A DNA stretch of 64,000 nucleotides from contig JBAZOT010000006.1 in assembly GCA_041648575.1 (NCBI GenBank), forward strand, positions 11,893 through 75,892, read 5' to 3'. Each line of letters starts with the position of its first letter. The stretch's first letter is position 1. The notes beneath the pieces were generated by a model. The model did not search any database. It had not been told where the DNA came from and saw only the letters and a program-made list of their open reading frames with translations. The translations under genes were made by a program, and so were the position numbers. The stretch comes from Patescibacteria group bacterium (GTDB lineage: Bacteria; Patescibacteriota; Patescibacteriia; Veblenbacterales; UBA10138). Positions 9,291-54,249 of this stretch are shown here, piece after piece.

Positions 9291-12200
9291 TTAATCCACC
9301 ATGGGTAATTTAGGCGGCGGTTCAGCTTTATTATGCACCACTACCCCTCCAGCAATATAAGTATGATAGGAGTTAACCTCTAGGTTATAAACCTGAACTA
9401 CTTTTTTAACTATTTCTATAGAAGTAATCTTTTCCGGTTTACCTTGGAAATTAAGTAGTTTGTCTCCCATCTTTAACTGGCCTATCTCTACCCATTGGCC
9501 ATCTGAATAAACAAGGTGATTGGCAGTTACCTCTAACTGACCATTGATAATTAAGTATTGATCGGTAGTATGTTTAAAAACCTTTCCTACCTTATCTGGT
9601 TTCAACTCTTTGGTGATTTCACTAAAGGCTAGTATAGTATCGCCTACCTGTACTTGTTCAATTGGTTTAGTGGTGCCATCAACCATTAAAATAGGGGTAC
9701 TAGAAAGGAAACAGGTATATCCTTTAGCTACAGAAATGGTTATAGTTTGAGAGCTTGCGCTACCTGCATTATCCGTGGCATTAAAAATAACAGAATATTT
9801 TCCAGCAGTAGTTGGCGTCCAAGTAAAGGTACGGACAATAGAATCAGTTCCACTAATAGGCTCAGATAAAGTAGCACCAGGAGGAAGTTGGGAAGTGGTA
9901 ATTTGTATAAGTTTACCTGGAAACTCTGCCCTTACATCAAAATTCAGACCTTCCCGTTCGGTTGTTGACTTATTACCAATAGGGTAAAAGTATAGCTGAT
10001 TAAGGACATTAATAGTAACATTTTGACTAGTATGATTTCCATAACTATCCGTTACTGAGAAAATTAGGTCATGCAGTCCAATGTCAGTACTAGTGGGACG
10101 CCAACTAAATATATGAGTAGCGGAGTTAAAACTTGCTCCCGGGGGTAATAAATCTACTGAATAGGTTAAAGCATCACCTTCTGGGTCGCTGGCATTTACA
10201 GTTATGGATAAGGTATCACCAAAATTAATGGATTTGTCACTTATTAGTGTGATGTAAGGCGATTGATTCCCTGGAAGCTCACTGAAATAAATATCCCAGT
10301 TGCCATTACGATTATCCTGCCAGACAATACCATAAGGAGAAATAGCCGGGTACGTTTCAGCATTCCAAGGGGGACCAAAAGTAACTTGTTGTTCTTGACC
10401 AGTGGCTAAATCATAAACATAAATATCCCAGCTGCCATTACGATTATCCTGCCAGACAATCCTGTTTCCTAAAATTACAGGATCGGTTTGGGCTTTGGTA
10501 TTAATAGTAATCTGCTGTTCAGTATCAGTTGCAATATCATACATATAAATATCTGCGTTACAGTCTGTGTCGCTCCATGGTGGCGAATAACACTCTCCAT
10601 TGCTATCATTACGAAGATCGCCCCAAACAACTCGTTGCTCAGAAGTAGAAACACCTTTACCACGGCCACTTTTATAAGGCTTAGCTCCTGATGCAATTTG
10701 TCGTTCCATATTGTTAGTAAGATTATAAATACCAAGTCGAGATTCGCTTAATGCATCAATATATTCTCTAAAAACAATAAATTTCTCCGAAACATCAGCA
10801 TGGAATATTGATCCGGGAACAGATTTGATTAGCCGTGACTTATCGTTGAGGTGATCGTAAAGATACAGATCCCTCTGTGCTGATATGCCACCATTATAAG
10901 TTAAATTATCACCTAAAACAGCTACAGAAGGATAACCCGGGTTAAATACATGTTCGACAAGTTGAGTAGCGAGATTATAAATCTTAATGGTATTATTTTC
11001 ATACCATGCAGCAATCTTATCCGAAATAGCGGGTGGATAGAGAGAAGTAGAGTCTGAAATAGTTTGTATTTTTTTCGAAAGAAGATCGTATAAATAAAAA
11101 TAACCTACAGAGTTGGTTGTAAACTCCGCAAAGACAATTTTCCCTAGAGAGGAAATTTTAGGAAATTGTTGATGTCTTGTGTTGGAGGTTATCCGGATAC
11201 TATCATCAAAGTAAAGAGTTTTGATGTCCTGAAACTGGTAACCGTCCTGTGTAGTAACCACTAATTTTATGACGTACTCTCCGGGAAGCAAGGCCTCTAT
11301 ATTCCAGTTGTTTACCAATATACCATTATTTACCGGAGTAAATATCGGATCATTAATGGGTAACCAATCTACCGGTGCCTTGCCTGCACCCCAAAAAAGT
11401 TGGTAATTTAAAAAGGTACTGCCAAAGGCATTTCCGCGAATTGGTAAAGAGGTTACATCGCTTTTCATCAGGATGGATTCAGAGATAGGGCTGGAGATAC
11501 TGGCATAAGATACTTGATTTAGGCCTAGTGCCCTTGATAGATTAATTAATCCCCCGCCGGTATATACGTCAAAGCCAGGAGTAGCTAAATCATCAGCTGA
11601 GCCACGCAACACCTGCCGAATATCCTCATTGGTAAAAGAGGATTTCTGGACTAAAATTAAAGCCGCTGCTCCTGCCACATGAGGAGCGGCCATACTAGTA
11701 CCACTGGACCGGTAGTATTGAGCATTGACATCAAACGCCGGTACGAAATTTGCTCCATTTGTATAACCACGAGCTCCTTTATACATATCGGTGCCAGCTG
11801 CTCTTAAAGAGAGAATTTGCACTCCGGGTGCCGCCACATCAATTTTATCTCCCCAATTTGAAAAATAGGCGCGGGCATTTTCGTTGTCTGTTGCAGCTAC
11901 AGTTATCACTTGTGGCAGCTTTGCCGGAAAGAAATAATTAACATCCAAATTACTGTTTCCAGCCGCCGCAACTAAAATTACGCCTTGTGAGTAAGCATAC
12001 TCAACTGCCGCAGCAATCAACTGGGAATTACCTTGCCCGCCCCAGCTCATATTGATAACATCTGCCCCGTTATCAGCCGCATAAGTAATTGTCTCGGCAA
12101 GGGCATTATCATATCCACTACCACTACCATCTAATCCCTTTACCGGCATTATCTTGCAGCCAGGACATACACCCGCAACGCCTAGGTTATTATCGGTTTT

Positions 12201-13187
12201 TGCAGCAATAGTTCCAGCTACGTGAGTACCATGGCCATTATCATCCATTGGATTGTTACTGTTGTTAACAAAATTATAACCGCTAATATCATCAACATAG
12301 CCATTACCATCATCATCAATATTATTATCAGGGACTTCCCCAAGATTATTCCAAATATTATCCTGTATATCCGGATGATTATAATCAACACCTGTATCAG
12401 AGACGGCTACGATAATATTAGAACCGCCACTAGTGACAGCCCAGGCTTCTTCCATTTTAATCTTCTCTAATCCCCAAAGATTAGAATAAGATTGCCCCCA
12501 AGCACCGGCTAACCAAGTTCCTTTTTGATTTGGGTCTACATAGGTATCATTAGGCAACGTAAATACAGTAGCTATATAATTAGGTTCACAATACTCTACA
12601 TTAGGATCTTTTTTATATTCCTCACAGATAGCCTGTATATCGGCACTCTTGTCTTCTAATTCCAACTTATAAATATTTGTCAAATTGGGAACCTTGGCAT
12701 TTTTAGGAGCACGCTTAGCTCTTTGAGAAAAATTAGCTTTGGTTTCAGTAAAAAGCTGTTTATAAGACTTATTAGTTTGCAGCTGTTTGTCTTTCAGTTC
12801 TTTAAATACTGGGGCTATATCTTTAACCTTATATTTAACATTGAGGGTATTAACAGATGACAAGCCAGTGCGACTGGGGCTTAGTTTCATAGTTTGAGAA
12901 TTTAGATTACGATCAATTGAAGCAGCATTCTTCTCTTTAAATTTAATAATGATTTCTCCTGGAACATTAGTAGCTTTATCCTGCGAGGTGTAAGTGCTAT
13001 CCACAAACGGTCCGGCATATACTAAAGAGTTAACTGGGATTCCGGCACGGGGAAGAATATTACTTAATTTTGTTACTACTAAAGTAGCAGCCAAAGCAGT
13101 GCTAACCAAAAAAACCATGACTGCTACGGCCACTACGGTATGGGTATCAATTTTTGTAGCAACTTTTTGAGGAGTTATGGTTATCAT
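9291..13187 (-). CDS. Giant surface protein: S8 subtilisin-like peptidase + PD40/TolB-like beta-propeller repeats + two Ig/cadherin-like domains + C-terminal Hint (bacterial intein-like) domain
   Basis: Signal anchor. S8 triad motifs VAVSDTGVDYNHPDI / HGTHVAGTIAA / GTSMAAPHVAGAAALI. Repeats IVWQDNRNGSWDIYVYDLATGQEQQVT. C-terminus CFLSSTPILMVDG...TANHLVY...YNLEVNSYHTYIAGGVVVHN, i.e. Hint N-terminal Cys block and terminal HN, followed by only 12 aa. Confidence 0.8.
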   Translation of the reverse strand: MITITPQKVATKIDTHTVVAVAVMVFLVSTALAATLVVTKLSNILPRAGIPVNSLVYAGPFVDSTYTSQDKATNVPGEIIIKFKEKNAASIDRNLNSQTMKLSPSRTGLSSVNTLNVKYKVKDIAPVFKELKDKQLQTNKSYKQLFTETKANFSQRAKRAPKNAKVPNLTNIYKLELEDKSADIQAICEEYKKDPNVEYCEPNYIATVFTLPNDTYVDPNQKGTWLAGAWGQSYSNLWGLEKIKMEEAWAVTSGGSNIIVAVSDTGVDYNHPDIQDNIWNNLGEVPDNNIDDDGNGYVDDISGYNFVNNSNNPMDDNGHGTHVAGTIAAKTDNNLGVAGVCPGCKIMPVKGLDGSGSGYDNALAETITYAADNGADVINMSWGGQGNSQLIAAAVEYAYSQGVILVAAAGNSNLDVNYFFPAKLPQVITVAATDNENARAYFSNWGDKIDVAAPGVQILSLRAAGTDMYKGARGYTNGANFVPAFDVNAQYYRSSGTSMAAPHVAGAAALILVQKSSFTNEDIRQVLRGSADDLATPGFDVYTGGGLINLSRALGLNQVSYASISSPISESILMKSDVTSLPIRGNAFGSTFLNYQLFWGAGKAPVDWLPINDPIFTPVNNGILVNNWNIEALLPGEYVIKLVVTTQDGYQFQDIKTLYFDDSIRITSNTRHQQFPKISSLGKIVFAEFTTNSVGYFYLYDLLSKKIQTISDSTSLYPPAISDKIAAWYENNTIKIYNLATQLVEHVFNPGYPSVAVLGDNLTYNGGISAQRDLYLYDHLNDKSRLIKSVPGSIFHADVSEKFIVFREYIDALSESRLGIYNLTNNMERQIASGAKPYKSGRGKGVSTSEQRVVWGDLRNDSNGECYSPPWSDTDCNADIYMYDIATDTEQQITINTKAQTDPVILGNRIVWQDNRNGSWDIYVYDLATGQEQQVTFGPPWNAETYPAISPYGIVWQDNRNGNWDIYFSELPGNQSPYITLISDKSINFGDTLSITVNASDPEGDALTYSVDLLPPGASFNSATHIFSWRPTSTDIGLHDLIFSVTDSYGNHTSQNVTINVLNQLYFYPIGNKSTTEREGLNFDVRAEFPGKLIQITTSQLPPGATLSEPISGTDSIVRTFTWTPTTAGKYSVIFNATDNAGSASSQTITISVAKGYTCFLSSTPILMVDGTTKPIEQVQVGDTILAFSEITKELKPDKVGKVFKHTTDQYLIINGQLEVTANHLVYSDGQWVEIGQLKMGDKLLNFQGKPEKITSIEIVKKVVQVYNLEVNSYHTYIAGGVVVHNKAEPPPKLPMVD

Positions 13188-21968: not shown

Positions 21969-22102
21969 GTCATTGCGAGCCTGCCTGCCGGTAGGCAGGG
22001 ATTCCCGTCTAACAGGTCGACGAAGCAATCCCGAAGGTTGCAAGCTTAAGCGAAGCAATCTCCAGAGATTGCCACGCTTCACTTCGTTTCGCTCGCAATG
22101 AC
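21969..22102. mobile_element. MITE-like structured element with 12-bp terminal inverted repeats GTCATTGCGAGC/GCTCGCAATGAC
   Basis: 134 bp. Contains the 21-bp CCTGCCTGCCGGTAGGCAGGG hairpin and a perfect GCAATCT-CCAG-AGATTGC hairpin (its partner GAAGCAATC..TTGC is imperfect). Partial copy of the same TIR at about 46990-47005. Confidence 0.5.
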
Positions 22103-26710: not shown

Positions 26711-26761
26711 TTATTAGAATATATCATGGCATAAAATATGTCAAGCAGCCCTTTCTAAAAC

Positions 26762-26825
26762 CAAAAACCACCCGATGAGGGTGGTTAAAGAGTACTGGTA
26801 GGGGCTGTGGAACGATGTTCGAACA
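26762..26825 (-). repeat. Cassette-array repeat R1 (terminator hairpin ACCACCCGATGAGGGTGGT + degenerate tRNA-Trp 3'-end-like module)
   Basis: CTGGTAGGGGCTGTGGAACGATGTTCGAAC aligns with the B-module of R2-R7. Abuts the stop codon of the PIN-like gene. Confidence 0.55.
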
Positions 26826-26828
26826 ATC

Positions 26829-27431
26829 TTAACTGACCAATTGGTTTGCATCTTGAGGGGCAGAATCTAATGGACTATGACCTGCTTCAGATAAATTTGA
26901 AGCTGTCTTGGAATAGTTTACATTTTTACCGACAAAAATAAAGTTAATTCCAAACTCCATACAGGCTATTTCAATCATAATGTCACCCGTACAAATTAAT
27001 ACATTTTTAGCAAATCTTTCTTTAAGCACTAAAGCGAGTGATACTAAACTCTTGTCAGCGCCACTATTACTTAACCAAAATAATCGTTTATCGTGAATTC
27101 TCTTCATATTTTCCGGAAAGAAATAAAGGATATCTCCGTTATCTAAATCAAACCCCTCAGAGAGTTTTTTCTCTTTATACCGTTGCATAAAACTAGTGGA
27201 AAAAATATCTGCGTTATCTTTGGTTGGACTAGTCACGGCTTTGGTATGTTTAACTGTATCTATTTCTAATAAAACATCGGGAATAAAAACAAACAGTTTT
27301 TTAATATTTGTATCACCACCCGGCCCAAATGCAGAATAATATTCTCGCCACTCTGGCTCATATAAAATAGCTGAAGTATCAATGATACATATTAAATCAA
27401 CCAAGAACCGGTTAATGTTCTCAAAATTCAT
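26829..27431 (-). CDS. PIN-like domain protein (putative nuclease), cassette 1
   Basis: N-terminal LICIIDTSAILYE (PIN strand-1 Asp), later acidic positions (LLEID, LDNGD, CTGD). 200 aa. Motif-level only. Confidence 0.4.
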   Translation of the reverse strand: MNFENINRFLVDLICIIDTSAILYEPEWREYYSAFGPGGDTNIKKLFVFIPDVLLEIDTVKHTKAVTSPTKDNADIFSTSFMQRYKEKKLSEGFDLDNGDILYFFPENMKRIHDKRLFWLSNSGADKSLVSLALVLKERFAKNVLICTGDIMIEIACMEFGINFIFVGKNVNYSKTASNLSEAGHSPLDSAPQDANQLVS

Positions 27432-27448
27432 GGATGCACAATTAATAA

Positions 27449-28162
27449 CTAAATTTTTATTCCCTTACTTTTTGCAAAATCAATAATATCTTTTATAGGA
27501 ACCCATATTGAAATTGCTACCCTAAATATATCTCCCTTATTAGGCTCTGATTGATTTAGAGTTTGTTCAACAACACGCCTTTGAACAATTGAGGCGTTGT
27601 GCATTCCAAACACCTTACCATTTCTAAGAAATCCCGGACTACCACTGGCTCCTGGATACATTAGAGCATCTGTCTCATAAGAATAAAAATTCTGATCGAC
27701 AAGTATAGTATTTTGGTAGCCAGATATACTTGCTCCTTGAAATCTTTCAAATAGATTAAATACGCCTGTATTTGGATGGATAGATGACAAAGGAAAACCC
27801 AACGATCCACAAGTGGTTCCAATGGGAATTTTATTCAGATAAAAGCTAACTACCTTCTTTGATCTAGGTTTTTCTATACGAATTAAAGCAATATCTCTTA
27901 CAAGATCTTCGCCGATATAAGTACACGACTCCATTTTTTTTCCAACATCACTCGCTAGAATTGCTTGAAAGTTAGTATACCTAGATTTTGTTCTATCACC
28001 TTGGATATGCACTACGTGTGCGGGAGTCACTAAGACACCTGGTGCAATCATAAAACCCGTTCCGGTGGTGGCAGTATATCCTTGGTTCAGTTGTGAAAAT
28101 GCCTTGATCCCATACAAGGACCTTCGTATTCTTGAACATGCCCATGGAAAAGTGTAAAACAT
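27449..28162 (-). CDS. Trypsin-like (S1/PA clan) serine peptidase, cassette 2
   Basis: GTGFMIAPGVLVTPAHVV (His), DIALIRI (Asp), PGASGSPGF (Ser, GDSGGP-like). 237 aa, no signal peptide evident. Confidence 0.65.
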   Translation of the reverse strand: MFYTFPWACSRIRRSLYGIKAFSQLNQGYTATTGTGFMIAPGVLVTPAHVVHIQGDRTKSRYTNFQAILASDVGKKMESCTYIGEDLVRDIALIRIEKPRSKKVVSFYLNKIPIGTTCGSLGFPLSSIHPNTGVFNLFERFQGASISGYQNTILVDQNFYSYETDALMYPGASGSPGFLRNGKVFGMHNASIVQRRVVEQTLNQSEPNKGDIFRVAISIWVPIKDIIDFAKSKGIKI

Positions 28163-28241
28163 AGTATTTATTAATAAGGTTTATATAAACCAAGTATAAC
28201 CATCTTAGGATTTTCGTCAAACCATATGAATAACAAACACT

Positions 28242-28736
28242 TCAATTTACATTCGTAGTATACTTACATTTCGGATAATTAGTGCATCCGTAAAACGAGC
28301 CAAATTTACCTTTTTTTTCCATTAAAGTACCGCCACAAGTAGGGCACACGCGAGGAGTAATGGGTGTGTTTATTTGAGAAATATCTTTTTCGGTCATCCG
28401 TATGTACTTGATTAATTGAAAACCATCAACGAGCTCAATTGGTTTGTCTTCAACAAACCTTTGGGCTTCTAATGTAAACTTATTTGTAGTAATGAAATAA
28501 CCCTTACCATTAGCAAGATTATTAGCCAGAGCACCATAAAAATCTCGCATGGCACCGAGTGTAACCTCTCTGGTAATAAACTTTTTACACTGAATATAAC
28601 TCGTTACCCCATCTTTTTGGATTACAACATCAATTCCGCCATCGTGCGATTTTCCAACGGCCTGTGTTTTATATCCGAGTTTAGAAAAAAGGTGAGCGAT
28701 ATAATTTTCAAACTCCGACGGTTTCATATTTTGCAA
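28242..28736 (-). CDS. Mrr-type restriction endonuclease catalytic domain fused to C-terminal topoisomerase-type C4 zinc ribbon, cassette 3
   Basis: FENYIAHLFSKLGY...SHDGGIDVVIQKDG...IQCKK (Mrr_cat D-(D/E)xK pattern). C-terminal CPTCGGTLMEKKGKFGSFYGCTNYPKCKY. Confidence 0.7.
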   Translation of the reverse strand: MQNMKPSEFENYIAHLFSKLGYKTQAVGKSHDGGIDVVIQKDGVTSYIQCKKFITREVTLGAMRDFYGALANNLANGKGYFITTNKFTLEAQRFVEDKPIELVDGFQLIKYIRMTEKDISQINTPITPRVCPTCGGTLMEKKGKFGSFYGCTNYPKCKYTTNVN

Positions 28737-29067
28737 CCATTGTAAAAGTTGCTGGTCAGAACGCCACTTAGCCCCTTCGGCAAAACGATTATCAGTTCGC
28801 CAACGATTAAATAAAATTGGTCCAAACTCGGAAAGTATCCATAAAACGAGAAGCCCTAACCAAAGTGGCCACCATGATAAAAAAATTCTTAGGAGACCTT
28901 AGTAAAGGCTTTGATTAAAGTCAATCATAGAATTTGTGTGTTTTAAAGATAAACACAAAGCCCTTGTCCAGCCAGGCCTTGCGACCCCATACCCCTTTCG
29001 AGATATGACCAACGGATGATGACTGTAGTTCAAACAACCATACCATTTGATGTATTCAACTCCTAAA

Positions 29068-29215
29068 ACTGGCAGTTTTGCCGTTTGGCAGGGTATCGTA
29101 GAGGATGTTAGAACCGCAATCCAGCAACAACAAGGGCATATTTACATACCTGATTTAAGACTAGAAACAATAAAGGTATAATCTACCCCACCCTGCTACT
29201 CACTATTGTTTTAGA
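29068..29215 (-). repeat. Cassette-array repeat R2
   Basis: TTGGCAGGGTATCGTAGAGGATGTTAGAACC (B), ACCTGATTTAAGAC (D), TACCCCACCCTGCTACTCACTATTGTTTTAG (E). Confidence 0.55.
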
Positions 29216-29305
29216 TGGGATTGAGCTTGACTTTTTGAGCTATTCAAGTAAAATTTAACTAATTAAATTGAACCTTGAAAACTGAATATTAGAAAGGGTA
29301 AAAAA

Positions 29306-29938
29306 GTGAACATCAAACTAACAGGACTTCGTGTGCTGAAGTTAATTATGTATACCATTATTTGGGTGATAGGTTTGATAGTATTGTTACTTTTCATCGG
29401 CTTTCTGAACTATAATCTACATTTTGGTAAAACCACTAACCTATACGTTGGAATCATTGCGGTCGGTGGGTATATCACGCTAACCGTATACAGCTTGAGC
29501 AAGATAGGCAAAATAGGAGTAATGATTTACTACGTATTGTGGGTTATCGCCTTACCCATCATTCTCCAAAATGTTCATACCTACTGCATCGAACACAATA
29601 TACGATATGGTAAGAATGATTTAATAATCGTTATTACGTTCCTAGTGTACATTGCCACTACAACAATACTGCCACTAATCTTGTGGCCGGGAAGGAAGTA
29701 TGACATGTACACAACTGAAGCTATAGCTAAAATAGCAGCCGGTGGGATATTTAGTCTCCCATACTACGCTTTTGTGGGTATCGGCCAAGGTATTCTTATG
29801 TTATTAAGGTTTTTAGGCCTTATCATTGCTGGTGTATTTGAATTAGCGATAATAATATTAAGTATAATAGGTAGTATTATTGGTTGGAGTATAGCCATAA
29901 TGTTCATTATTATCGTAATAGGCATAATATGTCACTAA
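29306..29938 (+). CDS. Polytopic membrane protein, cassette 4 (plus strand)
   Basis: 210 aa, 6 TM helices. Own hairpin+T-run terminator at 29947-29978 (AATCCCAGCTT..AAGTTGGGATTTTTT). Confidence 0.4.
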   Translation: MNIKLTGLRVLKLIMYTIIWVIGLIVLLLFIGFLNYNLHFGKTTNLYVGIIAVGGYITLTVYSLSKIGKIGVMIYYVLWVIALPIILQNVHTYCIEHNIRYGKNDLIIVITFLVYIATTTILPLILWPGRKYDMYTTEAIAKIAAGGIFSLPYYAFVGIGQGILMLLRFLGLIIAGVFELAIIILSIIGSIIGWSIAIMFIIIVIGIICH

Positions 29939-29984
29939 TATAATCTAATCCCAGCTTAAAAATAAGTTGGGATTTTTTATTCAC

Positions 29985-30158
29985 CAAAAACCACCCTCAT
30001 CCCTCATCGGGTGGTTGAAAGTTGCCTTCAGGGCATCGTAGAGCCTGCCTGCCGGTAGGCAGGGATGTTAGAACTAGGATTAGAGAAGCGGGAGTGGTAT
30101 ATATACCTGACTTAAGGACTTAAAACTTACCCCACCCTGCTACTCACTATTGTTTTGT
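29985..30158 (-). repeat. Cassette-array repeat R3 (carries a 21-bp REP-like hairpin insertion)
   Basis: Modules A (ACCACCCTCATCCCTCATCGGGTGGT), B (TTGCCTTCAGGGCATCGTAGAG[CCTGCCTGCCGGTAGGCAGGG]ATGTTAGAAC), D (ACCTGACTTAAGGAC), E (TACCCCACCCTGCTACTCACTATTGTTTTG). Confidence 0.6.
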
Positions 30159-30206
30159 TATGGCAACACTGAAGAAGTGATAAAATCATATTAATTGTTC
30201 TTAATA

Positions 30207-31217
30207 TTAATTATTCGGAATTAGTACGTTTTCGTAAGCGATAAACTTCGGTTTTATATCTTCTTCATAATTCCAAGTATCAGATTGCACATCAACATTT
30301 CTATCTGAAACTATTATAGGATAGCCACTTTGTGTTTTCGTTTTGTCATATATCCCAATTATAATCTGATTACCATTTACTTTTATATTATACTCAGCAT
30401 TTTGTCCCATTCCGAATGTTATATTGGAAATCAACCATTGGTTTTCCTTAACCACAAAAAGATTATTTTTAGAATCAGTTTCTAAATTAATAATATATAC
30501 ACCATTCATATCCCATTTAATTAATCTTTTACCATCCGCAAGAATCTTGTAGCTATCACTAGCCCAACCACGATATAAATCATACGTTGCAATAAAATTA
30601 CTCACAGCTAGCTCTTTTATTGTTAAATTAGATAAATCTAGACTATAAATTGCATTAATTCCCGAATATGGCACGTCGCTTTCCAAGTGATAAGCAGTTT
30701 TGAAATATAAATATTTTCCATCAGATGGAGCAGAAAACAGTTCTATATACATTGCACAACTGGGTTTCTCTTTTTCACCAGAGGAAATTAATTGTAATAA
30801 ACTAGGAATTAAAATTTCAGTTTTATTTTTTACCAGTTTCGTGTCCTCAGCGTCACTCCAATAATCTTCATAACAAGATTTATCTAGTTGATTATAGATC
30901 GGGGATTGTTTCAATGGATAATTGATTAAGGAATAATCTTTTAGATTAATATCACTTACATTATTACATTTTTCCTCCCAAACCCTTAAACACTTCTGTT
31001 TTTGTTCACACCAAGAATAACCAGCTGAGCCAATACAGCCATGTTCATCCTCATTATTACCAACTAATGGTTGATTTGTATTGGAGCTAACATTAACTGA
31101 AGTATTATTATCATTTTGTTTAACTGGCTTTTGTTGAGTTGGTGTTTTAGAGCAACTAGCCCCAAGCAACATAACACCGAGTAGTAATATACTGAAGGTT
31201 ACTATTGATTTTTTCAT
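30207..31217 (-). CDS. Lipoprotein of unknown function, cassette 5
   Basis: Signal peptide with lipobox LLGASC. 336 aa, N/S/T-rich. Confidence 0.4.
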   Translation of the reverse strand: MKKSIVTFSILLLGVMLLGASCSKTPTQQKPVKQNDNNTSVNVSSNTNQPLVGNNEDEHGCIGSAGYSWCEQKQKCLRVWEEKCNNVSDINLKDYSLINYPLKQSPIYNQLDKSCYEDYWSDAEDTKLVKNKTEILIPSLLQLISSGEKEKPSCAMYIELFSAPSDGKYLYFKTAYHLESDVPYSGINAIYSLDLSNLTIKELAVSNFIATYDLYRGWASDSYKILADGKRLIKWDMNGVYIINLETDSKNNLFVVKENQWLISNITFGMGQNAEYNIKVNGNQIIIGIYDKTKTQSGYPIIVSDRNVDVQSDTWNYEEDIKPKFIAYENVLIPNN

Positions 31218-31267
31218 AACAAATATAGAATTATTATTTAATACTTTAATTATACCCCTTACTATAA

Positions 31268-31455
31268 CTAAAAACCACCCCCATCGGATGGTTTAAAAGG
31301 TGCCTTCAGGGGCTAGTGGAGGACGTTAGAACCAGGATTGTGGCCAAAGAGATAGCCTTAGCTTAGTTACCCCACCCCTCGAACCACTATTGTTTTAGGA
31401 ATAAAAAAGAGAACACTATCAATTAGTGACAATGCCCTCTGAATTGTTTGTTAAA
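31268..31455 (-). repeat. Cassette-array repeat R4
   Basis: Modules A, B (GTGCCTTCAGGGGCTAGTGGAGGACGTTAGAACC), E (TACCCCACCCCTCGAACCACTATTGTTTTAGG), F (AATAAAAAAGAGAACACTATCAATTAGTGACAATGCCCTCTGAATTGTTTGTT). Confidence 0.6.
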
Positions 31456-31481
31456 GAATAATTGTTACAAAACCGCTCGTT

Positions 31482-32321
31482 CTATTTAAGAAAACGAGGT
31501 ACTGCTATTGGTTCATCTTCTGAACTTCTGGCCACAAGGAATATAAGTGAGGCGTTAGCGGCACCAAGGTTGGGAAGAAGTATTAGTTCGTTTCTTTCAC
31601 CAAGTCCACTTCCACCAAGTAGTAGGTACGCATGACATGTACTATTGAAGGATTTATCCATGCCTATCCTCAAGGCTTGATAACCAGCAATAAAGACAAC
31701 TGGAACATGGCTGTCATGCATCCGTTGCTGCCACTTAGGAAAGTATGATGCTGCCCAAAGTACTGCCGAGCTTGGAACTATAGAGGGATCCATTGCTTCC
31801 AAGGGATCTACGCCCCAATTGTCTAGTCGGGTGTTATTTGCGGGATCATAGAACGAAGCCATCGCGTTTATTATTTTACTCAGCTTTTCAGGTTCTTCAG
31901 ATACACTGACATCACCTTGATTCCACATGTGTGCGAGATCAATAATCCGCCAGCTCAACCCACGGCGGTGGGTAAGCCCAGGCCGTAAGCGCAGGTGAGA
32001 CTTGTCGAATGACAACTCGGGCTGGCGGTAATACTTCGGCTGTACCGCCGCGGCAAAAAGGCTTGCCTCCTCAACCGTCTCCCGCACATTGTCCAACATC
32101 ACATCAAGCACTACCGCAGCCAGCATACCAGGTACGTGTGGCCATGGTGGTGGCGCCCCCAGTGCTTTGAAATCTGCCTCAGTGAAACCCCAACCACGTT
32201 CACGGTTTCGTTCTCGCACGATATACAGCTGTACCTCTTGTGGGGTTATATTCGGAAAGTTGTCAGTTGGTACCAACAGCGCCTGCCGCTCCTCATTTAT
32301 GTTGTGTTCATACTTTTTCAT
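31482..32321 (-). CDS. Hypothetical protein, cassette 6 (visibly GC-richer than its surroundings)
   Basis: 279-aa ORF, R/P/W-rich composition atypical for this genome. No motif recognised. Confidence 0.35.
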   Translation of the reverse strand: MKKYEHNINEERQALLVPTDNFPNITPQEVQLYIVRERNRERGWGFTEADFKALGAPPPWPHVPGMLAAVVLDVMLDNVRETVEEASLFAAAVQPKYYRQPELSFDKSHLRLRPGLTHRRGLSWRIIDLAHMWNQGDVSVSEEPEKLSKIINAMASFYDPANNTRLDNWGVDPLEAMDPSIVPSSAVLWAASYFPKWQQRMHDSHVPVVFIAGYQALRIGMDKSFNSTCHAYLLLGGSGLGERNELILLPNLGAANASLIFLVARSSEDEPIAVPRFLK

Positions 32322-32526
32322 GATTTTACCTCTTTATTTTTTGTTACATTATGATATAAGCCAACAAAAACAAGCAAATAGTCTGCTTGTGACTGTTTGT
32401 AAAAGAGCTACTTCCTTTGTATTACAGTTTACACTATCTTACCACCGAATGGCGGTTTGTCAATGTCTTGAAACCACATACAAATAAAATGATTCGTAAA
32501 CCAAAAATCACTCAAACGAACGGTTA

Positions 32527-32722
32527 AAAGATAATGGCTCCGCATCGTGCCTGCCCGCCTTGGGTGGGGACGACGTTAGAACCAAGATTATGGAAGCTGG
32601 GGAGGTTTATATGCCTGATTTAAGGACATACTTCCAGTTTGTAGTCTACCCCACCCCATGAACCACTATTGTTTTAGGAATAAAAAAGAGGACACTATCA
32701 ATTGGTGACAATGTCCTCCGAA
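32527..32722 (-). repeat. Cassette-array repeat R5
   Basis: B (CCTTGGGTGGGGACGACGTTAGAACC), D (CCTGATTTAAGGAC), E (TACCCCACCCCATGAACCACTATTGTTTTAGG), F (AATAAAAAAGAGGACACTATCAATTGGTGACAATGTCCTCCGAATTGTTTGTTG). Confidence 0.6.
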
Positions 32723-32743
32723 TTGTTTGTTGTTTATTTACTA

Positions 32744-33427
32744 TCAATTGGCAAGCTTAACGGCAACGAAAAGAGTATTACGATACCACCGACTCTTATC
32801 ATTAATCTTTTCCAAACCAATATAACGCCTTGTAGTAGTTGCCCACAAAAAGCAGACGCGTTTCGAACCATCTTGCTGCCGCGACATTGTGCCAAGCCCG
32901 GCTACGGAGTATCCCCTTTGAATATCGGGAAATCTTGCTCCAAAGGCCAGAAGTTCCGGCAGTTCTGCAGGACGAAGATTACGTTTTACCAGCTCAGCAA
33001 TAACATCTTTAATGGTTGGAAATAACGACGGGTCATTAAAAAGAACGGGAATAATATACACCTCGGCCTTACCTTGACGTGTGGCAGGGAAATTTTCATC
33101 TGTGATAGTAGGGTCTACGCCGTCATATTTTCCCGCCAAGACTGCCTCTGCTGTAGATAGATCGTAGTTTACTGATACGGTTACTCCTGTTTCGGCTATC
33201 TGTTTTGCTTTTCGTAATCCTTCCTCCTGAAGCGCCCGCCCCTGATCTATACCCTCTTGGATTTTTCGCGTTTTACCCGCATCGTCAACCATTTTTGATA
33301 TTGCCATTACCAACAATAGGATTACGAATAGCCCCCTTCCCCAATCCGTACTGAGTATGGCGATAATTATCATAAGTGCCATGTATCCAAAAAATGCTAT
33401 CAGCAAAGCTATGACTATAATCTCCAT
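32744..33427 (-). CDS. Hypothetical protein with two N-terminal TM helices, cassette 7 (GC-richer)
   Basis: 227 aa. No motif recognised. Confidence 0.35.
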   Translation of the reverse strand: MEIIVIALLIAFFGYMALMIIIAILSTDWGRGLFVILLLVMAISKMVDDAGKTRKIQEGIDQGRALQEEGLRKAKQIAETGVTVSVNYDLSTAEAVLAGKYDGVDPTITDENFPATRQGKAEVYIIPVLFNDPSLFPTIKDVIAELVKRNLRPAELPELLAFGARFPDIQRGYSVAGLGTMSRQQDGSKRVCFLWATTTRRYIGLEKINDKSRWYRNTLFVAVKLAN

Positions 33428-33552
33428 GACGCTACTCCTTTCTATTAAGGTACTGTTATTTTATATTGGTATTTACCTAATTTATATTTAGGTTGATTTT
33501 AATTCTGCTTTATCATTAGCATAATATCCATAATTTGTCCATAGCATCATAT

Positions 33553-33710
33553 ACCAAAAACCACCTTCATCAGGTGGTTTAAAAGTGCCTTCAGGGCATC
33601 GTGGAGGATGTTAGAACTGTAATTCGGGGACAAAAGAGGTGTATTTATGTCCCTGATTTGAGACTGGATCGGAATATACAAACTTGGAATTTAGATTAAG
33701 GGGGGTGGCT
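33553..33710 (-). repeat. Cassette-array repeat R6
   Basis: A (ACCACCTTCATCAGGTGGT, perfect), B (GTGCCTTCAGGGCATCGTGGAGGATGTTAGAAC), D-like (CCCTGATTTGAGAC), inverted E-like (AAGGGGGGTGG). Confidence 0.6.
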
Positions 33711-33809
33711 TATTCTTGACAGAACAGTTATGAAGTATTAAGGTTATCACAAACAAACTAAAGTTATTTTAATGAACCCGTCCACGAGGATTCGTGGTAA
33801 AAAAGATTT

Positions 33810-34184
33810 TTGAAAGGAAGTAATATGGCAAAAAGTCAAGATGCTACTGAGCGTGAAGATAGGTTTATGAAGTTATTTGAAATGGTTCAGCCGGCTTTAA
33901 TTCCGCCACAAAATATGCAGACTAAGCAACTTATTGAAAAGACCTATGATATTATACAGAAGCTCCAACGCAGACTTCAATGTGTCTTTAACATTTCACA
34001 AGAAAAAAATGAACAAATTTTTCTTGCTTGGTATATCGGAGAACTACAACGGCTTAATTTGGAGATGAAGAAGAACAAATATGCGATATACAAAGCTTTT
34101 CCTTTCTGCGCCGCCTTGAGCCAAGCAATTAAGATTTACGAAGACGCATTCAAAGTTGATGAATATACTGAAGAGCCCACCTAA
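33810..34184 (+). CDS. Hypothetical protein, cassette 8 (plus strand)
   Basis: 124-aa ORF preceded by AGGAAG-like RBS. Confidence 0.3.
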   Translation: MKGSNMAKSQDATEREDRFMKLFEMVQPALIPPQNMQTKQLIEKTYDIIQKLQRRLQCVFNISQEKNEQIFLAWYIGELQRLNLEMKKNKYAIYKAFPFCAALSQAIKIYEDAFKVDEYTEEPT

Positions 34185-34257
34185 TGGCGCAAATAATTTC
34201 CTTTTTGTTCCCAAATAAAGCTCATTAACAACAATAAGTTAATGAGCTTTTCTTTAT

Positions 34258-34325
34258 CCAAAAACCGCCCTCATCGGATGGTTTAAAAGGTGCCTTCAGG
34301 GGCGGTAGGAATCCTTTTCCCCCAA
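34258..34325 (-). repeat. Cassette-array repeat R7 (near-perfect 17-nt copy of the tRNA-Trp 3' end; att-like)
   Basis: CAGGGGCGGTAGGAATC at 34297-34313 is identical to tRNA-Trp gene positions 34484-34500. Preceded by the A-type hairpin ACCGCCCTCATCGGATGGT. Confidence 0.65.
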
Positions 34326-34479
34326 AATTTAGCAACGCTTTGGCGTAAGCTAAATTTTTCCTCCAAAGCCCGGGTGTTCAAAAACGTAAAGCAGTTTACA
34401 TTTTTGAACTACCCTTCGATTCCTACCTCCGCCACAAACAAGAAAAGAGCATTCCCGAAAAATCGGAACTGCTCTTTTC

Positions 34480-34553
34480 TGGCAGGGGCGGTAGGAATCG
34501 AACCCACGCTAGAGGTTTTGGAGACCCCTGTACTACCATTATACGACGCCCCC
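34480..34553 (-). tRNA. tRNA-Trp (anticodon CCA), CCA encoded
   Basis: Acceptor GGGGGCG/CGCCCCT, anticodon stem GGGGT/ACCTC, loop CTCCAAA, T-arm GTGGG-TTCGATT-CCTAC, 74 nt. Confidence 0.85.
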
Positions 34554-34945: not shown

Positions 34946-35031
34946 TGGTGGGTGGAGTAGGATTCGAACCTACGAAGGCCGGAGCCAGCAGATTTACAGT
35001 CTGCCCCGTTTGACCGCTTCGGTATCCACCC
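34946..35031 (-). tRNA. tRNA-Tyr (anticodon GTA), long variable arm, CCA encoded
   Basis: Acceptor GGGTGGA/TCCACCC, anticodon stem GCAGA/TCTGC, loop CTGTAAA, variable arm TGGCTCCGGCCTTCG, T-arm GTAGG-TTCGAAT-CCTAC. Confidence 0.85.
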
Positions 35032-35045
35032 ATATTTTATAAAAA

Positions 35046-35282
35046 CTATATTAATTTTTTAAATGCCTCGCCTCCTTTATATGATTTGATCTGCAACTCT
35101 CTTTTATAGGCTTCTGATTTTGAATTAAATTTTTCAATGTATATTACTCGCCACGGAATTCCACTTTTAGTCGATCTAACTAATCCTTTATTATGTCTAG
35201 ACAATCTTTGCTCTAAATTTTCTGTATGACCAATATAGTACTTTTGGTTAGTTTGACTCTGCAATATGTAAGTAATATACAT
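35046..35282 (-). CDS. Small stand-alone GIY-YIG nuclease domain protein
   Basis: MYITYILQSQTNQKYYIGHTENLEQRLSRHN...(GIY-YIG ... R ... E core). Start placed at the internal Met because the ORF-track N-terminal extension (to 35348) is translated from a tRNA-derived fragment. Confidence 0.7.
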   Translation of the reverse strand: MYITYILQSQTNQKYYIGHTENLEQRLSRHNKGLVRSTKSGIPWRVIYIEKFNSKSEAYKRELQIKSYKGGEAFKKLI

Positions 35283-35321
35283 AATCCAACTACGGAGATT
35301 TATGCCGCCTCTGGCGGGGTG

Positions 35322-35379
35322 GCAGTCTGCCCCAGCTTGTCCCGCCACCGGCGGGATTTGACCGCTTCGGTATCCACCC
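35322..35379 (-). pseudogene. Duplicated 5' half of tRNA-Tyr (positions about 1-34) with a 24-nt hairpin insertion
   Basis: 35357-35379 is identical to 35009-35031 (tRNA-Tyr 5' 23 nt). CAGTCTGCCCC repeated at 35323-35333 and 34998-35008. The copy diverges exactly at anticodon position 34/35. Confidence 0.5.
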
Positions 35380-35671: not shown

Positions 35672-35744
35672 AGCCGTTGCGCGGATTTGAACCGCGGACC
35701 TACTCCTTACCATGGAGTTGCTCTACCAACTGAGCTACAACGGC
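35672..35744 (-). tRNA. tRNA-Thr (anticodon GGT), no encoded CCA
   Basis: Acceptor GCCGTTG/CAACGGC, D GCTC/GAGC, anticodon stem ACTCC/GGAGT, loop ATGGTAA, T-arm CGCGG-TTCAAAT-CCGCG. Confidence 0.85.
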
Positions 35745-36028
35745 TCTAGGCAGACGTATCATCCGAATGCTGGAGTTGCTCCCTGCCCCGTATGTAAATG
35801 AGCAAAGCGAATTCTACTGCGGGGTACCAACTGAGCCCTGCCTACCGGCAGGCAGGTACAACGGCCCAACTACGCTTGGATTTATTCCCAAGCTACGATG
35901 GGCGAGTGTACTTTTATACTATTTTTCTCGCCCTCCATAGCTTGAGTGTAACGAAAGTGGCAGAAGGAGCTACATCTACCATGGACAGACGTATCATCCG
36001 TATACCAGAGTTGCTTCTTTTAAATTAA

Positions 36029-53984: not shown

Positions 53985-54176
53985 GAGCTCTGGGGGTGGA
54001 CTCGAACCCTGAACCAGATGTCGCTTCGCTCTATCGGTACAGGGCAAAGCCAGCAACATTCCTGCCTATGCCAAGCAGATGTATTAATACCGTACAAATC
54101 CTCTCGGGGGAGGATTCGAACCTCCAACATCCCTGCCTGCGGCAGACAGGTGCATTAACCCATCTACCTCGACAAG
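53985..54176 (-). pseudogene. Two tandem tRNA-Asn 3'-end-like fragments (att-like scars). The middle one has a perfect T-arm and acceptor 3' strand but no matching 5' acceptor strand.
   Basis: Plus-strand CTCTGGGGGTGGACTCGAACCC (53987-) and CTCTCGGGGGAGGATTCGAACCTCC (54091-) versus the tRNA-Asn 3' end CTCTGGGGGCTGGGATCGAACC (54177-). Confidence 0.45.
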
Positions 54177-54249
54177 CTCTGGGGGCTGGGATCGAACCAG
54201 CGACCTCTCCGTTAACAGCGGAGCGTTCTACCAATTGAACTACCCCAGA
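54177..54249 (-). tRNA. tRNA-Asn (anticodon GTT), no encoded CCA
   Basis: Acceptor TCTGGGG/CCCCAGA, D GTTC/GAAC, anticodon stem CTCCG/CGGAG, loop CTGTTAA, T-arm GCTGG-TTCGATC-CCAGC. Confidence 0.8.

Follow-up and report, generated by a model that had tools for sequence, protein, structure and literature searches.

Repeats between small cargo genes at a tRNA-Trp gene of a Patescibacteria bacterium are probably 3' stubs of large serine recombinase genes

Cis-mobilisable elements (CIMEs) and the tandem accretion of elements at tRNA genes, as known from ICESt1 and ICESt3, involve tyrosine integrases and internal attachment-site (att) repeats of the attL/attR type. Tyrosine recombinases also act in SSV1-type archaeal systems, where integration into a tRNA gene, with ~44 bp of tRNA identity, splits and thereby disrupts the int gene, and in the integration-dependent immunity of mycobacteriophages, where attP lies in the repressor gene. 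Here we describe an array of small cargo genes and seven repeats, R1 to R7, found between a tRNA-Trp gene and a copper-resistance operon in a 64,000-nucleotide stretch of Patescibacteria group bacterium contig JBAZOT010000006.1, hereafter called the window. The repeats, all of which are intergenic and separate the cargo genes, are probably 3' stubs of large serine recombinase (LSR) genes that carry the attachment site, and the array would accordingly be a collection of integrase-less element remnants at a tRNA hot spot.

Like CIMEs, the array contains integrase-less elements that are flanked by att-type sites, arranged in tandem at one tRNA and mobilisable in principle by a related autonomous element; the att-type sites R7 and R2 bound five cargo intervals, and no recombinase is encoded in the window. 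The internal sites, however, are attP-form stubs of a serine integrase gene. With SSV1-type systems the locus shares an attP within the integrase reading frame and an integrase fragment at the far end of the element, but the enzyme is a serine recombinase and only its C-terminal tail is exchanged. Mycobacteriophage immunity is comparable in that attP lies in a coding region and integration at a tRNA alters the C-terminus of a protein, whereas here the recombinase itself changes its tail. Integron cassette arrays and clusters of attC sites lacking integron-integrases (CALINs) likewise place small cargo genes between conserved recombination-site repeats, sometimes without a nearby integrase, but the present array has no attC fold, no IntI and no attI/Pc platform, and its repeats are remnants of a coding gene. 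The serine-integrase systems of phiC31, Bxb1, A118/LI and SPbeta have in common with our locus the LSR family, seen here in related autonomous elements, a short core identity and a 5-bp motif shift (PMC3783163). Unlike in these phage and integrative and conjugative element systems, attP is located inside the 3' coding end of the integrase gene so that integration swaps the last ~30 residues, the targets are 3' ends of tRNA and transfer-messenger RNA (tmRNA) genes with the T-loop as half-site, and the window holds only stubs and no enzyme.

All seven repeat copies reported in the original prediction are present in the window and confined to 26.7-34.3 kb. A profile hidden Markov model built from the good copies gave five strong matches (E 4e-11 to 1e-29) and no copy elsewhere in the 64 kb, while a motif search of the window returned five matches of GGAYGTTAGAAC against 0.41 expected and four of CACTATTGTTTT, all of them in the array region. 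The copies are listed below with the tRNA gene, classified according to the reading argued in the following paragraphs; N flank denotes the hairpin-bearing part next to the core, and M1 a 27-nt motif, AACAATAGTG-N7-GGGTGGGGTA, located on the tRNA strand just after the LSR stop codon.

34480..34553 (-), tRNA-Trp (CCA), the attB-type target, found by ARAGORN and Rfam, 3' of rpmG
34312..34479 (-), 170-bp spacer between tRNA and R7, with a hairpin directly after the encoded CCA (AAAAGAGCA..TGCTCTTTT) and a second hairpin
34249..34311 (-), R7, attL-like; 17 nt of the tRNA-Trp 3' end (34295-34311), then the N flank
33545..33699 (+), R6, LSR-gene 3' stub in attP form, without M1
32495..32731 (+), R5, LSR-gene 3' stub with the core TGGCTCCGC (reverse complement of GCGGAGCCA)
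31259..31452 (+), R4, LSR-gene 3' stub in attP form; frame open across the core, ..LKTTPIGWFKRCLQ continuing into GLVEDVRTRIVAKEIALA-stop
29982..30160 (+), R3, LSR-gene 3' stub, ~95% identical to the single repeat of the related locus L054
29040..29215 (+), R2, attR-like, the top-scoring copy (101 bits)
26752..26830 (+), R1, degenerate LSR stub, cut off by the PIN gene
29184-29212, 30128-30156, 31368-31396 and 32647-32675, the M1 copies of R2, R3, R4 and R5, respectively

Read on the plus strand, the tRNA-like segment of the repeat together with its CCTGATTTAAG module encodes (I/V)V(E/D)DVRTxI...YIYIPDLR..stop; in a sister subtype the peptide reads VVDDVRTYWQTTT..FFIPSLSL..AKIN. Among nine copies from different phyla, 166, 140 and 362 differences fall on codon positions 1, 2 and 3, respectively, including Arg as AGA, CGA or AGG and, in the sister subtype, Leu as TTA and CTG. 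Neither a consensus fold (RNAalifold, -0.87 kcal/mol) nor compensatory pairs were found, and in Rfam the repeat has no family, only tRNAs passing the gathering threshold. A structured or tRNA-like RNA on the tRNA strand was therefore discarded, as hand-drawn acceptor-like pairings also fail across the copies. Below the Rfam threshold, and outside the repeat core, a LOOT RNA (28 bits, E=0.035) is weakly suggested at 28974-29090 (-), just beyond R2. A profile of the encoded peptide searched against 5.8 billion proteins gave 220 matches, and since the best 120 of these are all open reading frames (ORFs) of 24-97 aa, the peptide is usually detached from a long gene. It has no conserved start codon, and in locus L011 a stop precedes its first valine codon by one codon. 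A split gene other than an integrase was likewise abandoned as its source, given that the best 120 profile matches are tiny ORFs, while Pfam enrichment and a chimeric query, both described next, pointed to an LSR.

For the family scan, 133 ORFs from 31 loci bearing M1 were compared with Pfam, where 122 families were matched and the 25 most frequent listed. At the top stood Resolvase (12), Recombinase (11), Zn_ribbon_recom (10) and Toprim (10-11), which together make a large serine recombinase plus a primase. The LSR genes of these loci are convergent with tRNA genes and extend across them on the antisense strand, so that they end in tails such as ..RWLRGWDSNPRP (..DSNP..). A query consisting of an LSR C-terminus joined to the peptide retrieved P0134 and the near-identical P0143. 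P0134 (L060, 1100-1807) is the C-terminal part of an LSR and ends in ..AECPTLRR followed by VVDDVRTYFQNTTDRFFIPSLSLETAKIN-stop, with M1 directly after the stop. In L060 the DNA runs unbroken from the LSR 3' end through the core GCGGAGAG and the peptide codons to the stop and M1. This constitutes the attP form, and the C-terminus encoded in L060 matches the repeats of six other loci. P0143 (L062) departs from P0134 exactly after LRR and runs into tRNA-Ser antisense, as expected of the attL (integrated) form, and the attR form is seen in L004, L051, L048 and L011. L043, with an LSR and tRNA-Ser, and L004, with a repeat, lie on one contig, have the core GCGGAGAG in common and join in frame. All three site forms, attP, attL and attR, are thus observed for one enzyme lineage. 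What the original prediction had taken for a decaying copy of the tRNA is opposite-strand coding sequence of an LSR C-terminus with third-codon-position variation, and its terminator hairpin proved to be LSR coding sequence too, namely the P' arm with the penultimate ~15 LSR codons.

Integrated forms at tRNA-Trp itself are found among 80 metagenomic tRNA-Trp loci, 59 of which encode CCA: in three of the 80 (L127 and the fragments L083 and L132) an LSR gene abuts the tRNA and ends in ..WQGR-stop or ..LQGR-stop, the exact antisense translation of the tRNA-Trp end. The penultimate codons of the L127 LSR can be aligned to the hairpin flank (AKTTQKGDFAALQ versus LKTTPIGWFKRCLQ in R4), which makes R3, R4 and R6 attP-form stubs (P'-core-P) comprising the last ~45 codons. 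The flank was also considered as a native tRNA-Trp terminator, but none of the 80 loci has an AAGGCAC-hairpin flank and the sequence aligns to LSR codons. The P' codons also form a hairpin with a T-run when read on the tRNA strand, and would end the tRNA transcript after integration. The enzyme thus has two C-terminal forms, its last ~30 residues being swapped for a tRNA-antisense tail (..WQGR-stop at tRNA-Trp, ..DSNPRP.. elsewhere), as seen from L083, L132, L127 and L062 versus L060. A VRT.W repeat inside the LSR as a symmetric attP turned out to be partly coincidence; a second GGTTAGAACC box, ~60 nt upstream, lies in differing frames among LSRs.

In 9/9 evaluable pairs, the repeat has a core of 5-8 nt that is identical to the 3' terminus of the tRNA or tmRNA gene upstream of it; these pairs cover tRNA-Trp (window, L054), tmRNA (L018), tRNA-Ser (L043/L004) and tRNA-Asn (L052, L047). 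In the window, the tRNA-Trp 3' end ..GTTCGATTCCTACCGCCCCTGCCA is the source of the crossover core CCCTG, which is common to R2, R4 and R6. Each of the nine pairs furthermore has the GTTC box exactly 5 nt farther from the core in the repeat than the T-loop GTTC in the tRNA (left P/B half-site). Rutherford et al. showed for serine integrases that the zinc-ribbon-domain motif is 5 bp nearer the centre in attB than it is in attP (PMC3783163). As the shift found here matches this rule, the T-loop appears to act as the attB half-site motif and the DVRT codons as its attP counterpart.

The individual copies preserve this structure to different degrees. The N flank of R7 is the LSR P' arm, with penultimate LSR codons, hairpin and T-run; it aligns with the LSR gene abutting tRNA-Trp in L127, and in the relative L054 the N flank follows directly 3' of an intact tRNA-Trp. 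R6 is composed of the P' hairpin (33560-33578), the core CAGGG (33592-33596) and a P arm encoding VEDVRTVIRGQKRCIYVPDLRLDRNIQTWNLD-stop (33601-33699). R5 deviates in its core, as GCGGAGCCA fits an Asn-type tRNA end (CGGAGC, as in L047) and not tRNA-Trp; its coding part is split by a variant of a 20-nt GC palindrome (32550-32569), and its M1 is followed by an extra palindrome, GGACACTATCAATTGGTGACAATGTCC. The Asn-type core and the GC-richer 279-aa cargo gene next to it suggest that the R5 module formed elsewhere. R4 carries a deletion in the stub and an extra palindrome after M1; its N flank and promoter share ~90% identity with the flank of tRNA-Trp in L054. R3 is interrupted by the 20-nt palindrome CCTGCCTGCCGGTAGGCAGG at 30044-30063. 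R2 consists of the core with encoded CCA (TGGCAGGG, 29087-29094) and an intact P arm encoding VEDVRTAIQQQQGHIYIPDLRLETIKV-stop (29098-29181), followed by M1. What is left in R1 is the core CCCCTACCA, a hairpin resembling P' and a stretch with the codons for ..NDVRTI..; past the hairpin comes TTGACA..TATATT, which looks like a promoter of the copper operon. The imperfect palindrome GGACACTATCAATTGGTGACAATGTCC stands beside M1 in R4 and R5 only (31405-31431, 32683-32709) and was not seen in the other loci inspected.

Neither an LSR, a primase, an "ORF B" nor another recombinase was detected in the 64-kb window by Pfam (best 25 of 47 families in one listing) or by tblastn with eight LSRs, which agrees with the earlier statement that no recombinase lies in or near the array. 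A view that no recombinase family applies would be wrong, as the family is identifiable as LSR and is simply absent from the window. The interpretation of the array as a footprint of site-specific recombination at a tRNA 3' end is supported. Overall, what had been observed holds for the most part and the original prediction is partly supported: it was right in spirit, with recombination scars at a tRNA and the recombinase in trans, and wrong on the identity of the repeat. Relatives keep the order ScpAB-TIM-TPR-tRNAs-L33-tRNA-Trp and a VTT-domain gene, with differing genes between tRNA-Trp and the VTT gene, which supports the tRNA-Trp locus as a hypervariable hot spot. The absence of secE-nusG, noted previously, carries no information, as 4/4 relatives examined also lack both genes after rpmG-tRNA-Trp. 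In L054 a single cassette is present, consisting of tRNA-Trp, N flank, a 220-aa gene, the R3-like repeat and then CCA. Its cassette ends are 90-95% identical to those of the window (R4 flank, R3), the TPR protein is 73% identical, and the cargo differs.

In the mechanism that we propose, the integrase gene would itself carry attP within its last ~45 codons, with the codons KTT..G.F..(C)LQ, which form the hairpin and T-run on the tRNA strand, as the P' arm. The crossover would take place where 5-8 nt agree with the end of the acceptor stem in the target tRNA or tmRNA, here the short core CCCTG, and the P arm would comprise the codons (I/V)V(E/D)DVRT...IP(D/S)L..stop, whose GGTTCTAAC box would mimic the T-loop 5 nt farther from the crossover. 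Integration would then split the gene, leaving the integrase body by the tRNA with a newly gained tRNA-antisense tail (..WQGR-stop at tRNA-Trp) and moving the last ~30 codons together with M1 to the far end of the element. In the window, the integrase, primase and other backbone genes would have been lost, leaving one composite island with R7 as its attL-like end (tRNA fragment + P'), R2 as its attR-like end (P + CCCTGCCA) and the four presumed attP-form stubs R6, R5, R4 and R3 between the cargo genes in its interior. Such an island may have been assembled from several elements, which formed cointegrates and then inserted, or inserted one after another at the tRNA, and later lost their backbones. 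Present-day movement would need an LSR and a directionality factor from elsewhere.

Module identity, the three site forms in related contigs and the 5-nt geometry carry this assignment, and several points weigh against it. No LSR is encoded in the 64-kb window, so there is no sign of activity there. For the window subtype IYIPDLR, the best 120 of 220 matches are tiny ORFs and include no full-length fused LSR; the fused protein P0134 belongs to the sister subtype FIPSLSL..AKIN, and of the window subtype L047 contributes no more than a degenerate remnant of ~99 codons. L004 and L043 may be the two ends of one element, to judge by their common contig and consistent strands. The core of R5 is mismatched to tRNA-Trp, and the model accounts for neither the 170-bp spacer between tRNA and R7 nor the role of M1. 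Canonical serine integrases, moreover, recombine only attP x attB (PMC3783163), which places serial insertion beside an occupied tRNA outside the known rules. Stacking would thus presuppose non-canonical reactions or, as we infer, cointegrates that carry several attP sites and insert through one of them.

The strongest competitor to stubs as mere remnants is a reading of the same stubs as active handles, in which integrase-less cassettes with an intact attP, and perhaps with M1 as a site for replication or regulation, are moved in trans by the LSR of a resident element and the locus serves as a gene-capture platform. The coding stubs of R6, R4 and R2 are indeed still open and conserved, R2-R5 have an intact M1 even in copies whose coding part is disrupted, the ends of the cassettes are better conserved between the window and L054 than the TPR protein while the cargo is different, the best 120 of the 220 peptide matches of the window subtype come without an attached LSR, and arrays recur in several lineages of the Candidate Phyla Radiation (CPR). 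Against it stand the missing LSR in cis, the disruption of R3 and R5 by insertions and of R4 by a deletion, the lack of M1 in R6, and the rule that attL- and attR-type sites go unused without a directionality factor (PMC3783163). Neither circles nor an empty/filled polymorphism were found among the contigs seen, as other contigs with the cargo are identical or broken at a common 31-mer; the Logan contig L002, initially a candidate for an excised circle, breaks at the 31-mer common to R4 and R5. We therefore regard it as possible, though rather doubtful, that the stubs (attP plus M1) are the cis handles of a non-autonomous cassette system across the CPR, by which serine integrases acting in trans capture, stack and reshuffle cargo at tRNA and tmRNA ends. 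If true, this would be a handle system analogous to the integron in function, built on a different recombinase and site, with a C-terminus that switches between excised and integrated form.

It is very improbable that rounds of integration, as typical of tyrosine integrases, displaced one copy of the tRNA-Trp 3' end after another and that the repeats are these copies, decaying with age and distance. R7 truly shares 17/17 nt (CAGGGGCGGTAGGAATC) with the tRNA-Trp 3' end (p<0.0005 against 2000 shuffles, which also apply to the following values), as had been proposed, and R1 (p=0.002) and, marginally, R2 (p=0.05) exceed the shuffles as well. R3-R6, by contrast, are no more tRNA-Trp-like than shuffled sequence (p=0.12-0.93), and the claimed decay of identity with distance is not supported by any trend: R6, the nearest full repeat, stands at the shuffle mean, and the farthest copy, R1, is second best. 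A direct repeat of the tRNA 3' end is accordingly found in R7, more weakly in R1 and R2, and not in R3-R6. The tRNA-like segments match a consensus from other phyla at 15-17/22 positions, better than they match tRNA-Trp; their coding sequence is conserved across phyla, the segment is contiguous with the LSR gene in L060, and only the 5-8-nt core matches the tRNA.

Similarly hard to sustain is a genome-wide terminator, repetitive extragenic palindromic (REP)-like or small-RNA family apart from recombination, or an independent small gene. The hairpin and T-run do resemble an intrinsic terminator, and gene callers annotate small ORFs over the peptide, but the copies are confined to this locus in 64 kb and have no RNA fold and no Rfam family, and a small gene is contradicted by the non-conserved start, the stop before the first valine in L011 and the identity of the peptide with the LSR C-terminus in L060. 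Least plausible of all is an integron-like array with attC-type folded sites, an IntI-type tyrosine recombinase and promoterless cassettes: short cassettes, ~100-200-bp repeats, the missing adjacent recombinase (as in CALIN clusters) and a GTTAGAA that, read from the sequence, resembles the GTTRRRY core at 6/7 positions are outweighed by the lack of an attC-like fold, conserved hairpin or covariation, by the absence of an IntI or tyrosine recombinase from the window and from the 25 most frequent Pfam families listed for the 133 ORFs of the related loci, where the enriched recombinase is Resolvase+Recombinase+Zn_ribbon_recom, and by cassettes that have their own promoter-like sequences, two of them inverted.

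Instead of the eight single-gene cassettes described before, there are five intervals with one gene each and a block in which three genes (PIN, trypsin-like protease, Mrr+Zn-ribbon) follow each other without a repeat:

33810..34184 (+), cargo 1, 124 aa, without family match
32744..33427 (-), cargo 2, 227 aa, without family match
31482..32321 (-), cargo 3, 279 aa, GC-richer (0.48-0.53), without family match
30207..31217 (-), cargo 4, 336 aa, putative lipoprotein by an N-terminal signal and Cys read from the sequence
29306..29938 (+), cargo 5, a 210-aa membrane protein
26829..28889 (-), three-gene block with no repeat inside, assigned by Pfam, PHROGs and PADLOC
26829-27431 (-), PIN_4-like gene of the block
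27449-28162 (-), trypsin-like protease gene of the block
28242-28736, possibly to 28889 (-), Mrr_cat + Zn-ribbon nuclease gene of the block

Homologues of the cargo were not found among the related loci collected. Elsewhere in the window, 9291-13187 (-) encodes a protein of 1298 aa with subtilase, He_PIG/Ig-like repeats and a C-terminal pretoxin-HINT, and L052 has a large subtilase beside a He_PIG protein.

The 170-bp spacer contains the palindromes and the inverted tRNA-like piece claimed for it, the latter a 3' fragment at 34411-34435, and its first ~25 nt past the CCA are common to the relative L057. The spacer may stem from a small insertion of later date by which 17 nt of the tRNA were duplicated. 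A TD-2 RNA is weakly suggested within it at 34372-34469 (-) below the Rfam threshold (30.9 bits, E=0.16), again outside the repeat core. A small insert of similar style, also comparable to L059, is present at the 3' end of tRNA-Asn (window 53987-54249): a second copy of this 3' end (GGGTTCGAGTCCACCCCCAGAGC) lies ~190 nt downstream of the gene, with another T-arm-like piece and the GC palindrome in between. The 5' end of tRNA-Tyr is duplicated exactly over 23 bp (35009-35031, 35357-35379) on either side of a GIY-YIG (homing-endonuclease-like) ORF at 35046-35348(-), and a 34-nt repeat (35732-35765 / 35967-36000, 79% identical) that duplicates the 5' end of tRNA-Thr(GGT) surrounds a GC-rich insert of ~235 bp (GC 0.52-0.56) with the palindrome CCTGCCTACCGGCAGG. 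The 20-nt GC palindrome CCTGCCTGCCGGTAGGCAGG is found at 21980-21999, 30044-30063 and 35837-35856, with six overlapping pattern matches at these three sites versus 0.04 expected; variants lie at 32550-32569 and about 54125-54143, and it is also present in L050, L024, L057 and L059. In R3 and in the unrelated Saccharibacteria locus L050 it occupies the same stub position and breaks the reading frame. It behaves like a tiny site-preferring insertion or a REP-like element.

The M1 pattern was found in 49 GTDB genome stretches from Saccharibacteria, Parcubacteria, Levyi-, Curtiss-, Andersen-, Doudna-, Vogel-, Chisholm- and Peribacteria and others, and had no match in the viral contigs of IMG/VR. 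It occurs in two contexts, firstly in the same ~130-nt unit as in the window repeats, and secondly in mobile elements, where it forms an imperfect inverted repeat at the end of the Toprim primase gene. M1 is nearly invariant across many CPR phyla (window, L003-L051), tandem in five loci and often followed by a start codon after 10-60 nt; it could serve as a replication-origin iteron or as an operator/promoter. In other CPR genomes, similar stub arrays come after other tRNA genes and a tmRNA gene (L018, L047, L032, L049, L030). In the literature on integrons, serine recombinases and attP within integrase genes in the CPR we found no description of such a system, which is not proof of absence; a large family of CPR integrative elements with primase, serine integrase and M1 is apparently new to the literature.

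With the repeats read as LSR stubs, an orphan-looking repeat becomes a readable record, in which each copy stands for a serine-integrase element and the tRNA at which the junction arose can be read from the core. For CPR genomes, whose mobile elements are poorly charted, this offers a simple rule to locate island boundaries and hot spots, as well as natural tRNA-targeting serine integrases with defined attP/attB pairs, and it raises the question whether the swap of the tail on integration serves to regulate the enzyme.

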